This document shows positions 51,302 to 57,720 of a DNA stretch of 64,000 nt, in pieces. Each line of letters begins with the position of its first letter. The first letter of the stretch is position 1. Source of the DNA: a virus (Duplodnaviria > Heunggongvirae > Uroviricota > Caudoviricetes); the IMG/VR virus record IMGVR_UViG_2713896905_000004, positions 1-64,000 of that record; one strand, written 5' to 3'. The notes below the pieces were generated by a model. That model saw only the letters and a program-made list of their open reading frames with translations. It was not told the DNA's origin and made no database searches. A program made the position numbers and the translations under genes.

Positions 51302-51574
51302 TTAAGGCTCACATTTCCAGATGGTATTCTGAACACCCGAACCGGGCGCAAGATTAGGGTTAGCGTTCGCGCTATGCTGATATACTGCTTTAGACTTCCC
51401 ATATTGCTGACAGGCTTTATCTGCGGTTTTTTGCAGGCTATCCAGGCCATACCAACCATCTGACTGTATGCTTACCTTTTCACCGTCGTTGTATTGCACC
51501 ATTGCACACCCAGATATAGCCAGTATCGCGCCGACAATAACGCTTTTCCATAAAACTCTATGCAACATATACAA
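51302..51574 (-). CDS. putative lipoprotein (90 aa)
   Basis: Signal peptide with lipobox 'LAISGC'. Confidence 0.55.
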
Positions 51575-51613
51575 AAATCCCCTCTGTGAATTGAGGGGAT
51601 TTTAGCATGGTGA

Positions 51614-52387
51614 TCAGATATCGGCCTTATTCGGAATTTTATCAGCCACCAGCGGCAATAAAGCCTTCGCCATTTCATGAACCAACATGGCATCAATGAC
51701 GCCTAGCGTATGGCCCGGCTTAATCTTTAATGCGGCCTCAAGATAGCCTCTTTCCAGAGTGGTTTTTACGCTTTTCTTGGGCGATTGTTGGGAACTATCC
51801 GGAAAATCCGGATGGTTGCCAGCCACATAAGCTACCCGCAACCAGTGCATGAATGTTTCCGCAGACACACAACCGCAGTCCACATCGATTTTCCCGCGTT
51901 GCTGTTCCAGCCATTGCTCAAAATCTAACTTGTAAGCCTTACTTTCAGGTTCATCACCATTGAACTCGACTTTCTGCGACGCTATGAGAGCAGCTTCGTA
52001 TTGTTCGCGAGTGACAACTGACTGGTATTCATCGCTATCAAGGTCACCGATTGGAAGCTCAATCTCACAACAAAAATTGCGCCCAAAGAAAGTGTCTTTT
52101 TTGTGGTCCGAGCCAAAAGCAAAAGTCGCGCATGGCGCCATTAAATTGGCACTGAGCAGGCGACAATCGATCATACCATCAGGCCACCCGCCGCACTTGG
52201 GCAGCTCCTTCACTAACAAGTCGATAAGCTTCATTTTTTTATCATCTTTGCAAGCCGCCAAAGCCATTTGGGCAAGTGCCAATACTTCATCTGCCGTATA
52301 TCCAGCACCGTGACCATACATTTCGATACGGGAAATAATCTCTGATATACGCTCTTCAGTGATTCTGGTCATTTCTTTTTGCGCCAT
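51614..52387 (-). CDS. hypothetical protein (257 aa)
   Basis: ORF in a long same-strand accessory operon. Confidence 0.5.
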   Translation of the reverse strand: MAQKEMTRITEERISEIISRIEMYGHGAGYTADEVLALAQMALAACKDDKKMKLIDLLVKELPKCGGWPDGMIDCRLLSANLMAPCATFAFGSDHKKDTFFGRNFCCEIELPIGDLDSDEYQSVVTREQYEAALIASQKVEFNGDEPESKAYKLDFEQWLEQQRGKIDVDCGCVSAETFMHWLRVAYVAGNHPDFPDSSQQSPKKSVKTTLERGYLEAALKIKPGHTLGVIDAMLVHEMAKALLPLVADKIPNKADI

Positions 52388-52743
52388 TTCTTTTCACATT
52401 CCTTAGTCCATTTTTCAATGTTCATTTTGGCAATATCAGTCATTCCATCACCTAAGAAATACTTTTTCCGGTATGTCTTGCACTTAAACCACACTACAAC
52501 AGCCACCAGCCAGAAAATAAAAGGCCATACAGCAATACCAACGACAGCCGCGATAAAGCCCAATAGCCATAAATGAAGCTCTCCAACTTCTGTTTCCGGC
52601 AATATTCTTAAAGAATTAAACAGCAGGCTGAACGAATGGTCGTATGCATTGGCAGTATAAGACATGCAATCCATATAATTAAAGTCATAGCCTGCGGCTG
52701 CCGCCCATAATGGGCGGTCAAGAAAATGTTTTAGTGTCATCAT
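52369..52743 (-). CDS. small membrane protein (124 aa)
   Basis: Hydrophobic segment 'LWLLGFIAAVVGIAVWPFIFWLVAVVVWF'. Confidence 0.45.
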   Translation of the reverse strand: MMTLKHFLDRPLWAAAAGYDFNYMDCMSYTANAYDHSFSLLFNSLRILPETEVGELHLWLLGFIAAVVGIAVWPFIFWLVAVVVWFKCKTYRKKYFLGDGMTDIAKMNIEKWTKECEKKWRKKK

Positions 52744-52749
52744 ATAAAT

Positions 52750-55039: not shown

Positions 55040-55502
55040 AATCCATCATCCCGTAATATTTCATCAACCCCATCCGTCGGTTGCTGAGTCTCACCCACTG
55101 CCAGACGCCAGGAGCGTTTCTACGAACTAACAGAATCTTTGCTTTACGGTTTTTCATCTTACAGCGTACCCTTTCTTCCGCCTGTTCTGTGACGCAGTAG
55201 GCTTACGCTTTGCGGCAAAAGCCACCTGACCAAATGGATGGAGTACCGCTATCTTATGGTTGCTAATAACCAGCTCCACCACACGCACAGGTCGCTGTAA
55301 AAAAAGTCGTTTTGCCTTACGGTTTTTCATCGCTTTGCTCTCCTGCGTCTCTTTGCTGCTCGTCGTGCCGCTGCAATACCGGTATGGCGGCGCTTTGGTG
55401 CCGGGATGATGTTGTCAGCCATCAGGACATACGGCTTTGCAATTAGCGCAGAAGCCCAAAAACGAGTCGGGTACGGTAACAAGCCGATACATGCCACACG
55501 CA

Positions 55503-56261
55503 TTACTCACCTCCTTTGATGCGAATGCCTGCGGCGCGGATTGCATCGATGACTTCAGAAACTTTGTATGCCATTACCGTTTGGTAATCATCGTGAAAAT
55601 CTGTTCGATGAAGCATGCTGCTACGTTCCGGGAGCGATATTTCCCGAGCATCCAGTTCCTTAACGCGTTCCTCCAGTTCGTAGACCCTGCATTGTTCTCT
55701 ATCATCAATCAGATATAACCCAAGACATTCGCTTTCTACCCAACCGCCAAAATCATGATCGTAACGCTCACATGAAAACTCACCGTCACCGTCCTTTGTT
55801 GGAATGGTGTAACTATCTAATGGGCCACCATATGTCGGCACATTTCCCAATGTTGGATGCTCAATCCACATGAAAAATGCACGTCCGGTTATTGGGCAAA
55901 TATCTGGCCGCCATTGGTTACGAACAGCCTTGGTTTCGGATAATTCTTCAGCGTGTTGTTTTACTTCCTCAAGCTCAACTCTCAGCTTCCCTACCGTTAG
56001 CGCAATATCCTCGTTCTCCTGGTCGCGGCATTTTATGTATTGCTGGTTTCTTTCCCGTTCATCCAGTAGTGCCAGCACGGTTTCTGGTCCGGTCAGAAAT
56101 TTGAAGGCGTTGAGCGCATCAATATCCACACCGTAATCCTTAAGTTCCTGTTCAGTTAACAAATCATCATCAACTGGCAACATTAACAGGTGTTCCATTG
56201 CCGGAATTGCACGCTCTGCCGCCTCACGCAGTGCCTGATAGTCAATTGTCATTCTCGCCAT
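55503..56261 (-). CDS. Ea22-like/ead-family phage accessory protein (252 aa)
   Basis: N-terminus 'MTIDYQALREAAERAIPAMEHL' resembles the conserved start of Ea22-like proteins. Confidence 0.45.
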   Translation of the reverse strand: MARMTIDYQALREAAERAIPAMEHLLMLPVDDDLLTEQELKDYGVDIDALNAFKFLTGPETVLALLDERERNQQYIKCRDQENEDIALTVGKLRVELEEVKQHAEELSETKAVRNQWRPDICPITGRAFFMWIEHPTLGNVPTYGGPLDSYTIPTKDGDGEFSCERYDHDFGGWVESECLGLYLIDDREQCRVYELEERVKELDAREISLPERSSMLHRTDFHDDYQTVMAYKVSEVIDAIRAAGIRIKGGE

Positions 56262-56893
56262 CCTTCACAGTTGTAATCACTACAGCCTTCAAAATCATAT
56301 GGGCTGTACTGCCAGGTTATTTTTCCGCAATGCGGACAATTCCAACGCACCTTCCCGCTTCGCGACTTCTTTCTTCTGTTCTGCTCTTTCAACCAGTCAG
56401 GCATGACCAAACCTGCGCCCTGAACCATTGTTCTGCGGTTAAAGTTATTGATATTGAACGTCCGACGCTTTGCTGCATCAGCAATGGAAAATGGCAACCA
56501 AACTATTCCTGGTTCGTTTTTGTTGGCGACGCTAAAGATGGTCGCTTTACTGAAGTCATCTGTTGGCAATCCACCGTGTTGAAGCCAGTAAACATCGTTG
56601 CCGTTCCAGCTACCTTTTTTGTAGGCCACATACGCAGTGCAATCTGACTCAATCAGGCTTTCTGTGGGGATGTACTGGCAATCAACGTGCCACACAGCCA
56701 TTGCATCCACGCTATCAGCGCAAACAGGCTGATCGATATCTCGTCCACAATTCCAGGCTTTTTGGGCTTCTTCCAGCGTGTAAACATGAGCGCGATCGAT
56801 ATCAGAACTGTAACCATTGCCGTTATGGCAATGGAATGAGGCGTTATTACCCACAGTTTCACGCAAGCACATCATGTAAAAGCGGTTATTCAC
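56249..56893 (-). CDS. hypothetical protein with C-terminal zinc finger (214 aa)
   Basis: 'RWNCPHCGKITWQYSPYDFEGCSDYNCEGW'. Confidence 0.5.
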   Translation of the reverse strand: MNNRFYMMCLRETVGNNASFHCHNGNGYSSDIDRAHVYTLEEAQKAWNCGRDIDQPVCADSVDAMAVWHVDCQYIPTESLIESDCTAYVAYKKGSWNGNDVYWLQHGGLPTDDFSKATIFSVANKNEPGIVWLPFSIADAAKRRTFNINNFNRRTMVQGAGLVMPDWLKEQNRRKKSRSGKVRWNCPHCGKITWQYSPYDFEGCSDYNCEGWRE

Positions 56894-57170
56894 TGGTTGC
56901 CTCCGCTTCCCACGTTTTCAGACTTTCACCACAGAACGGGCAAAATGAAACTCGAATAGGCGATTTAGAAAATTCACCAGACCGCAGCATGATCAGGTCT
57001 TGTGAATGAATTAATTCATGGTTATAGATTTTGTATTTCAGCAGACCTTTTCGCGTCGTGTATTCAGCGTCATGCTCCAGGGATTGTGCCAACGCCGCGC
57101 ACGGTTCTATCTTGTTGCCATTAATTTGGCATTTTGACTCACTCACTGGTTGCCCCCTGAATACGCTCAA
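56886..57170 (-). CDS. small zinc-ribbon protein (94 aa)
   Basis: 'CQINGNKIEPC...FCPFCGESL'. Confidence 0.4.
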   Translation of the reverse strand: MSVFRGQPVSESKCQINGNKIEPCAALAQSLEHDAEYTTRKGLLKYKIYNHELIHSQDLIMLRSGEFSKSPIRVSFCPFCGESLKTWEAEATSE

Positions 57171-57720
57171 ACTCTATTACCCACACCCAAGGATTAGCGT
57201 TCCAACTATCTTCGCCATAAATTGATTTCCATAGGCTACGGAAACCTGGGTAATGCTTATCGCCAATGAGGGGCGATTCTGTTGGTGCGCCCTCAGCCCT
57301 TGCATCGCATTCGCTGATATCGTTCAACCGCTCAACGCGCACGTTGGTAATTTCCAGAAGAATGCGCGATGCCCAGCGCGGCATGTGAATTGATGGCGTC
57401 CACTTTTCTGATACTGGTTTATTACAAACCTCGACCGGAACCCGGTGCGTTTGTTCTGTCCAGGAGTTACGCACGCTTGCGCGATAAACCAGCGTTGCGA
57501 CGTCCGTCGCTTTGCCATGTACCCGGTAGGTTTCGCGAACCCAAATACGATCGCCCGGTTGACCATATGGACAATGCTTGGCAAGCAACTCTGCGGCCAC
57601 TGCCCGTCCATAGAATTTTTCTTCAACAATCCTGCGAGTCTGTTTTTTATTCCCGCCAAGAATTGCCCGGACCATCTCATCGTTAAAAATCATGCCGCGC
57701 TCTTTCACTTCGCCTTTCAT
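57139..57720 (-). CDS. ASCH-domain-like protein (193 aa)
   Basis: N-terminal 'MIFNDEMVRAILGGNKKQTRRIV' and 'GDRIWVRETYRV' fit the ASCH/PUA-like pattern. Confidence 0.5.
   Translation of the reverse strand: MKGEVKERGMIFNDEMVRAILGGNKKQTRRIVEEKFYGRAVAAELLAKHCPYGQPGDRIWVRETYRVHGKATDVATLVYRASVRNSWTEQTHRVPVEVCNKPVSEKWTPSIHMPRWASRILLEITNVRVERLNDISECDARAEGAPTESPLIGDKHYPGFRSLWKSIYGEDSWNANPWVWVIEFERIQGATSE

Follow-up and report, generated by a model that had tools for sequence, protein, structure and literature searches.

What is the array of small genes that stands between pap and hot in a P1-like plasmid-prophage, and what might it do there? We addressed this question for a 64,000-nucleotide (nt) stretch of DNA from a Caudoviricetes virus (positions 1 to 64,000 of IMG/VR record IMGVR_UViG_2713896905_000004; hereafter the window), which holds such an array at positions 51302-57720. 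The source element is a P1-like plasmid-prophage with cre at 39155-40186; elements of this kind are common in Escherichia coli and Salmonella, and they are known to carry resistance genes. Searches with positions 51000-58450 matched 1328 plasmid records, mostly from Escherichia, with E. coli pLH85-a-A as the top match (99.3% identity, 98% query coverage). The top phage matches were SJ46, RCS47, P7 and P1-like isolates.

We consider it likely that the interval is early-operon cargo placed directly after pap in P1-family plasmid-prophages, corresponding to the OpmgT (Op88) operon in P1 and the 'hea' operon in P7. In a lysogen the array would be silenced by the C1 repressor, and upon infection or induction it would be transcribed among the first genes. 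By analogy with Ea22 of lambda and Shiga toxin (Stx) phages, its products would be dispensable and would modulate host physiology or the lysis-lysogeny balance, without a part in replication or morphogenesis, and its cassettes would be exchanged through homologous recombination between shared neighbouring genes. The array probably stops at a hairpin at 51574-51603; the lipoprotein gene and hot would then be reached by read-through or from a promoter of their own. The feature is real. Its operator, operon and variability have already been annotated or published, and a near-identical array is present in public plasmids. Relative to the accessible part of the published description, this analysis adds a corrected gene list, fold support for an ASCH-like protein, the collinear order of the cassettes on an anchor of operator, hairpin and leader open reading frame (ORF), and a division into lambdoid-shared and P1-specific halves.

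A variable slot behind a C1 operator

Predicted C1 control of the array is supported by position: operator and promoters are placed as annotated in P1 and P7, and a candidate c1 gene lies in the window. The C1 operator consensus is a 17-base-pair (bp) asymmetric sequence (ATTGCTCTAATAAATTT), and the window contains 13 sites within three mismatches of it, compared with 0.35 expected by chance. The first base of the putative operator downstream of pap is the last base of the pap stop codon, an overlap that is also found in P1. The site differs by one base (AAATAT, versus AAATCT in P1) from its P1 counterpart, which record NC_005856 labels 'monovalent C1-controlled operator OpmgT; corresponds to former Op88', with citation of older Op88 sequence entries, and the P7 annotation reads 'Op(hea); predicted to regulate expression of hea operon'. 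It overlaps the -35 region of two promoter candidates that are base for base identical to P2pmgT and P1pmgT of NC_005856, themselves predictions and not mapped starts. As for the repressor, the 283-amino acid (aa) ORF at 41744-42595, next to the clustered operators of the immunity region, is the candidate C1. An initial annotation of this DNA had described a C1-controlled series of co-oriented ORFs behind this operator, and two elements of that description were borne out, the site and the shared minus-strand orientation of the genes between operator and hot; the control is supported by position.

To follow the locus across relatives, we used 80 loci fetched by their Pap protein, with up to 10 kb of flank each, together with P1, P7 and two other records. 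An operator with at most two mismatches followed pap in 84 of 84 P1-like loci. In about 80 of 84 loci, and whatever the cargo, it was followed by a GC-rich hairpin and a putative leader ORF, both of which lack annotation in P1. The hairpin was kept in 75 of 85 loci; a T-run follows it on the plus strand, so that it is terminator-like in that direction. The leader peptide was identical in 66 of 85 loci, and where the ORF varied the changes were a mix of synonymous and non-synonymous ones, which does not settle whether it is translated. An Rfam search of positions 50000-59000 gave only two sub-threshold chance matches.

Beyond this anchor the cargo is highly variable. Measured from the pap stop codon to hot or to the convergent lxr/upf genes, the slot spans 1,975-9,523 nt in 44 bounded loci, with 6,855 nt in the window versus 2,525 nt in the reference P1. 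Operon-strand ORFs of at least 45 aa from 63 usable loci fell into 140 clusters, an overestimate of the real number of gene families owing to spurious antisense frames in 17 loci with an inverted restriction system. None of the clusters was universal; the commonest, the ASCH/PmgT family, occurred in 43 loci, and each of the window's own array genes in 5 to 43. The 42 bounded loci of the window's type displayed 37 layouts, and the pairwise order of clusters was consistent in 3608 of 3609 observations. Because the order is near-invariant despite so many layouts, we read the slot as a collinear mosaic arising from homologous recombination between shared neighbours, as in lambdoid phages, and not from random insertion.

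The description of the cargo as accessory in the initial annotation is supported by the lack of a universal gene in the 63 loci and by the P1 slot genes: pmgT to hot were non-essential in a genome-wide CRISPR interference study, in which upfM was untested (PMC10695390). According to the accessible part of a survey of 54 P1-like elements, the slot (pmgT to humD) is 'variable region 8', one of eight such regions (PMC9603915).

Two kinds of replacement cargo were found. In 17 of the 63 loci the slot is occupied by hsdM-hsdS-hsdR, a type I restriction-modification system that runs on the opposite strand and is followed directly by phd-doc (for example L051, 6766-12768, and L012, L053 and L064); these loci are without the array, hot, lxr and humD. 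In such relatives the equivalent of the hairpin at 57844-57866 sits between the hsdR 3' end and pap and could terminate hsdR transcripts. The retained promoter, predicted to be under C1 control, faces the hsdR 3' end, and antisense control of restriction upon induction could result. The P1 record notes identity of its flank to DNA beside the EcoDXXI and R124 hsd loci; a literature search for a link between type IC restriction and P1-like plasmids found nothing specific. In two loci (L056, 11201-14836, and L059) a gene in the slot, downstream of the operator and in operon orientation, encodes a 1,211-aa intimin/invasin-type inverse autotransporter with IAT_beta, Big_1 and Invasin_D3 domains.

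Gene content, products and lambdoid exchange

The interval 51302-57720 contains 14 genes, all on the minus strand, which are listed from operator to hot in Table 1. Eleven ORFs had initially been counted; four small genes of 58, 58, 62 and 69 aa, all with PHROG matches, had been missed. Start codons follow PHROG alignments and the RefSeq entry for pLH85-a-A, a near-identical plasmid whose gene table includes the 62-aa gene, the 69-aa gene and the 58-aa gene at 55327-55503 and lacks the 58-aa gene at 55154-55330. The alternative 93-aa version of the 69-aa gene (GTG at 55039) is probably too long, as phrog_926 aligns from residue 25. The products of the second 58-aa gene and of the 62-aa gene both begin with MKNRKAK, and many relatives have one or two copies at this place. 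The 97-aa gene directly precedes the 124-aa gene in most loci that carry it, and the pair is confined to P1-like phages. The lipoprotein gene lies directly upstream of hot in most of its seven loci.

Table 1. Features of the array and its surroundings, in order from pap to hot, with c1 last; coordinates refer to the window.
Feature	Position	Strand	Remarks
pap, HAD-type polynucleotide phosphatase	57915-58421	-	PF25109; also annotated in P1 and P7; forms the slot's conserved upstream flank
Putative C1 operator, = P1 OpmgT (former Op88), P7 Op(hea)	57899-57915	-	ATTGCTCTAATAAATAT; 16 of 17 consensus bases
Two overlapping sigma-70 promoter candidates	57871-57914	-	TTGCTC-N17-TAAAAC (57914-57886); TTGATT-N17-GAAAAT (57899-57871)
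9-bp GC-rich hairpin, 5' end of operon transcript	57844-57866		-16.3 kcal/mol sense, -17.9 kcal/mol antisense
Putative 28-codon hydrophobic leader ORF	57730-57816	-	MNTAFKIIMAAIYFWLFSITFGGIVAHG; AGGAG Shine-Dalgarno sequence; precedes first gene
193-aa ASCH-fold protein, = P7 Upf86.8	57139-57720	-	phrog_874; 46% identity to P1 PmgT in a local alignment that covers half or more of the protein
86/94-aa four-cysteine protein, = P7 Upf87.4	56886-57170	-	C-X9-C...CPFC; phrog_4030; 86 aa in P7 and RefSeq
214-aa protein, = P7 Upf87.6	56249-56893	-	C-terminal CxxC...C...C zinc-ribbon-like motif
252-aa Ead/Ea22-like protein	55503-56261	-	PF13935, 95.9 bits (cut-off 27)
58-aa basic protein	55327-55503	-	phrog_13831, E = 1e-41; RefSeq-annotated in pLH85-a-A
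58-aa protein, tandem paralogue of 62-aa gene	55154-55330	-	phrog_1380; same cluster as 62-aa gene
62-aa protein with CxxC motif	54969-55157	-	phrog_1380, phrog_12350
69-aa four-cysteine protein	54758-54967	-	phrog_926; RefSeq start in pLH85-a-A
407-aa mosaic protein, EaA-like	53538-54761	-	C-terminal DUF551, PF04448, 37 bits (cut-off 22); several PHROG modules
77-aa acidic protein	53222-53455	-	phrog_3876; 27 of 63 loci
97-aa protein, first of commonest cargo pair	52750-53043	-	phrog_1258; 36 of 63 loci
124-aa membrane protein	52369-52743	-	Hydrophobic stretch at residues 57-86 (about 30 residues), lysine-rich tail; phrog_2638; 35 of 63 loci
257-aa mosaic protein	51614-52387	-	N-terminus phrog_60 and phrog_3323, resembling that of the DUF551 protein; C-terminus phrog_21459
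Terminator-like hairpin	51574-51603	-	-20.3 kcal/mol, z = -5.0; followed by UUUUUGUAU
88-aa predicted lipoprotein	51302-51568	-	Lipobox LAISGC (pattern [LVI][ASTVI][GAS]C) read from sequence; phrog_7757; 7 of 63 loci
hot, DNA polymerase III theta homologue	51060-51299	-	PF06440, 116.8 bits (cut-off 34.6); outside 51302-57720
c1 repressor gene, candidate	41744-42595	+	283-aa ORF beginning MINYVYGEQLYQEF, beside a cluster of operator matches

Gaps of -13 to +9 nt separate the ten genes that run from the 193-aa gene to the 407-aa one, a spacing typical of a translationally coupled operon. Beyond the 407-aa gene the gaps widen to 82 nt, 178 nt and then 45 nt. The 178-nt gap between the 77-aa and 97-aa genes (53044-53221) falls in the stretch of lowest GC content (0.39-0.40) and contains a 40-codon hydrophobic ORF (53051-53173, minus strand; MSKVNVLIFSAIVGFGFTAGVQIYITWGKIINYAWSCFIK) that is unannotated in the related plasmid. 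This modest dip covers 52400-53400; no sharp island boundary was seen in the base composition across the array.

Among the proteins of the array and Hot, the Pfam thresholds of Ead_Ea22, DUF551 and DNA_pol3_theta were passed, in agreement with the Ea22-like and DUF551 assignments made initially, and the membrane and lipoprotein features named at that stage are visible in the 124-aa and 88-aa sequences. The remaining array proteins gave no match above threshold in Pfam, NCBIfam or PADLOC. PHROG matches were obtained for every tested ORF except a long 44-codon form of the leader, with function unknown for all but hot. Functional names from the Pfam, PHROG, NCBIfam and PADLOC scans of all ORFs were thus limited to Ea22, DUF551, theta and the pap phosphatase. 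Hot, the theta homologue, is 95% identical to P1 Hot. Ea22 alone among these families has been studied by experiment, with regard to the lysis-lysogeny balance: in lambda and in Stx phages it is pro-lysogenic (PMC7093339, PMC10834534). The window's protein is 37% identical to lambda Ea22 over 202 aa.

The first gene had been called ASCH-like. At the sequence level this did not stand, as Pfam ASCH (PF04266) gave no match to the 193-aa protein even at E <= 10; at the level of the predicted fold it is correct because of the structural matches of a model. K25, T28 and R30 of the protein are invariant. It belongs to a family of 43,891 clusters at 50% identity, and weak PF04266 matches were found in 8 of 56 diverse members (best E = 2.4e-4), with no other family matched. 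An AlphaFold2 model built from family members reached a mean predicted local distance difference test (pLDDT) score of 91. Foldseek searches of the PDB with this model returned ASCH proteins as the top 14 and as 16 of the top 17 matches, among them 3s9x, E. coli YqfB, PH0355, EF3133 and ZmASCH, with a probability of 0.92-1.0 for the first 14 and a target-normalised TM-score of up to 0.74. PDB sequence searches with the 193-aa protein, the 214-aa protein and the family profile found nothing.

Two zinc-ribbon proteins had also been proposed. Their cysteine pairs are conserved, in the 214-aa family (C186, C189 and C204 invariant, C209 nearly so) and as C-X9-C...CPFC in the 94-aa protein, but the zinc-ribbon matches in Pfam were all below threshold; the 94-aa protein also showed a weak match to DUF6980 (E = 0.009). 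In prophages of Yersinia and Acinetobacter, homologues of the 214-aa protein are encoded in operons adjoining cI/cro-like genes, a context that agrees with a presumed early accessory role. The 124-aa membrane protein matched the CptA toxin family only weakly (E = 0.08).

Hundreds of lambdoid phages have matches to the middle of the array (53701-56904). In the Stx2c phage Stx2_5044 the 214-aa, Ea22, 58-, 58- and 62-aa genes stand in the same order at 97-100% identity, with the Ea22 copy 97.6% and the three small copies 100% identical. Shigella phage Ss-VASD carries a homologous block at about 94% nucleotide identity, which includes DUF551 and Ea22 homologues and lies in the exo-xis ('ea') region, with gp11-gp13 between int/xis and the genes for exonuclease, RecT and Gam; residues 1-232 of the DUF551 protein are 78% identical to an exo-xis gene of this phage. 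Parts of the segment match 2638 of 5426 complete E. coli genomes, at 3959 chromosomal places and 592 on plasmids. The distal part (51302-53500) was found in only ten records within the phage collection, all P1-like. The array thus reads as a lambdoid-shared half and a P1-specific distal half with different histories. Of the original 'nin/ea'-like label, the second part is upheld by the Ea22 and DUF551 families, the Stx2c identity and the exo-xis position in Ss-VASD; the first is not, since no nin-type family (NinB, NinG and others) appeared in Pfam, PHROG or NCBIfam scans of the ORFs.

Transcript limits and competing explanations

Several points weigh against early-operon cargo as the explanation. 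Its function is proposed by analogy with the single family Ea22, and 13 of the 14 genes are without a tested relative. When all window proteins were compared with lambda positions 27500-33500 by tblastn, Ea22 alone matched, and homology of the small ORFs to lambda orf60a, orf61, orf63 or ea8.5 was rejected. The promoter, its repression and the extent of the operon are predictions that rest on sequence and on the annotations of P1 and P7. More than one transcription unit is conceivable in view of the 82-nt and 178-nt gaps (53044-53537) and of the hairpin at 51574-51603; a promoter scan inside the array reported 9 sites versus 12 expected, although weak or extended -10 promoters escape such a scan.

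The last of these points leads to the most probable alternative, a division into at least two independent units: transcription under C1 control ends at 51574-51603, and lipoprotein gene and hot are expressed by themselves, possibly in the lysogen, as a lysogenic-conversion module of a surface lipoprotein and a stabiliser of the polymerase III proofreading subunit. We hold this to be plausible, if tentative. The hairpin and its U-run lie between the 257-aa stop codon and the lipoprotein ATG and accompany the lipoprotein cassette in six of its seven loci, although the base of the stem consists of A-U pairs, which puts termination efficiency in doubt. Its left arm is overlapped by an extended -10-like element, TGcTAAAAT (51607-51599, minus strand). 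A transcript from this element would not fold the hairpin, and a nested terminator and promoter might in this way insulate the lipoprotein-hot pair from the array; the element is, however, a consensus-level reading without a -35 element and was not reported by the promoter scan. P1 hot has promoters of its own, including the late promoter LPhot, but the P1 late-promoter box is absent on the operon strand of the window, and late control of hot as in P1 was rejected for the window on this ground. The gap of 2 nt between the lipoprotein gene and hot is uninformative on where a transcript starts. The operon had first been described as ending with hot. The identification of hot stands; its place at the end is uncertain, because the terminator-like hairpin precedes the lipoprotein gene and leaves co-transcription in doubt. 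The pair, with hot outside the interval, may be a separate unit.

Two observations concern the opposite end. Between pmgS and pap there is a hairpin that resembles a terminator and has a U-run (58446-58474, minus strand). Upstream of pmgR, two operator-like sites with three mismatches each (59991-60056) resemble P1 OpmgRa/b, so that read-through into pap and the array may also come from a second promoter under C1 control. Beyond hot, two plus-strand genes converge on it (50101-51048), encoding a 194-aa Lxr-like and a 120-aa protein; they form the right-hand boundary of the slot in relatives without hot, and the 120-aa protein is absent from P1 and present in P7-like elements (Upf93.6).

Returning to early-operon cargo, the question is what the products would do. 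The array families had initially been called typical of anti-defence islands, and in that case early genes would inhibit restriction, abortive infection or nucleotide signalling, with cassette turnover as the trace of an arms race. Early, repressor-controlled expression and extreme presence/absence variation fit counter-defence genes, and the slot of relatives resembles a defence-related hotspot, with the type I system in 17 of 63 loci and also a PAPS (phosphoadenosine phosphosulfate)-reductase-like gene. Among the RefSeq/PLSDB names given to some matching regions are an adenine methyltransferase and a dATP/dGTP pyrophosphohydrolase, and the ASCH fold binds or modifies nucleic-acid bases. Yet no window protein matched an anti-restriction family of Pfam or any model of NCBIfam or PADLOC (PADLOC gave 0 matches for the ten larger proteins), the check having used these general libraries. 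The 214-aa protein has no structural neighbour hinting at a target, no experiment ties any of these families to defence, and the anti-restriction Dar system of P1 is encoded elsewhere (PMC12707154). The claim that the families are typical of such islands thus found no support in these matches, and we think an anti-defence island rather unlikely.

A bolder version appears decidedly improbable to us: the pap-proximal slot as a dedicated cargo-exchange site, in which operator, hairpin and leader form a plug-in module for expression and insulation and some of the cargo encodes new counter-defence or host-takeover effectors. Candidates for such effectors may be the 214-aa protein, the ASCH-fold protein and the pair of 97 and 124 aa. 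If this were true, the C1-controlled promoter in relatives with inverted hsd genes would fire antisense into hsdR and shut restriction off upon the lytic switch.

That the array is passenger DNA without benefit, a set of decaying hitch-hiker remnants of recombination with resident lambdoid prophages, seems very doubtful. Its content is highly variable, the reference P1 manages with a 2.5 kb slot, and the gene table of the closest plasmid lists only a 56-aa fragment at the DUF551 gene, suggesting a disrupted copy. All 14 ORFs of the window are nevertheless intact and tightly coupled, and between lineages with differing flanks identity exceeds 90% for most cargo proteins, the DUF551, 257-aa and ASCH-fold proteins being more divergent. 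Gene order is kept in all but one of 3609 comparisons, and the families extend well beyond E. coli, as seen in the number of ASCH-protein clusters and in the Yersinia and Acinetobacter homologues of the 214-aa protein. A contribution to virion assembly is suggested by the P1 gene names pmgT, pmgU and pmgV ('putative morphogenetic function'), by the homology of the first gene to pmgT (46% identity) and by the match of the neighbouring pmgR and pmgS to a head-morphogenesis PHROG, but is hardly credible. P1 does not require pmgT, pmgU or pmgV; P1-like elements with the same virion genes share no universal cargo gene; the ASCH fold of the first gene is not a structural-protein fold; and in relatives a restriction system or an adhesin takes the place of entire arrays.

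The slot is one of few places of foreign-DNA uptake in P1-like plasmid-prophages. It trades cassettes with Stx-converting prophages at near-identical sequence and holds early genes, a restriction system or an adhesin. Because of this exchange and the varied cargo, it is a practical hunting ground for phage-host interaction genes, with 14 candidates that would be under one known repressor.

Relation to known systems

The interval studied here was covered before as 'variable region 8' (PMC9603915). In its accessible part that study scored the presence of P1 reference genes only and reported no collinear cassette order, no anchor of operator, hairpin and leader, and no restriction-system or adhesin cargo.

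The P1 OpmgT/Op88 operon resembles the window's array in its place after pap, in the same predicted promoters, 5' hairpin and leader ORF, in the first gene and in the distal position of hot. It differs in length (2.5 kb versus 6.9 kb in the window), and the pmgT homologue and hot are the only genes in common; in place of LPhot, the late promoter that precedes hot in P1, the window has the lipoprotein gene and its hairpin. The 'hea' operon of P7 (AF503408) is closer in its first part: Upf86.8, Upf87.4 and Upf87.6 are 98-100% identical at the protein level, the Ea22-like Upf88.3 81% and the DUF551-type Upf89.5 75%, and the operator is annotated as controlling. P7 lacks the 58-, 58-, 62- and 69-aa genes, the block of 77-, 97-, 124- and 257-aa genes, the lipoprotein gene and hot, and ends in other upf genes and IS903.

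The exo-xis region of lambda and Stx phages is likewise an early, non-essential and highly mosaic array of small genes that includes Ea22 and DUF551, with 97-100% DNA identity between the window and the Stx2c prophage and gene synteny with Ss-VASD. The window differs from it in lacking ea8.5, orf60a, orf61 and orf63 homologues and in its P1-like-specific distal half. The two also differ in control, which is exerted by CI and N at PL in lambda and, as predicted from position, by the P1 repressor C1 at a single monovalent operator in the window.

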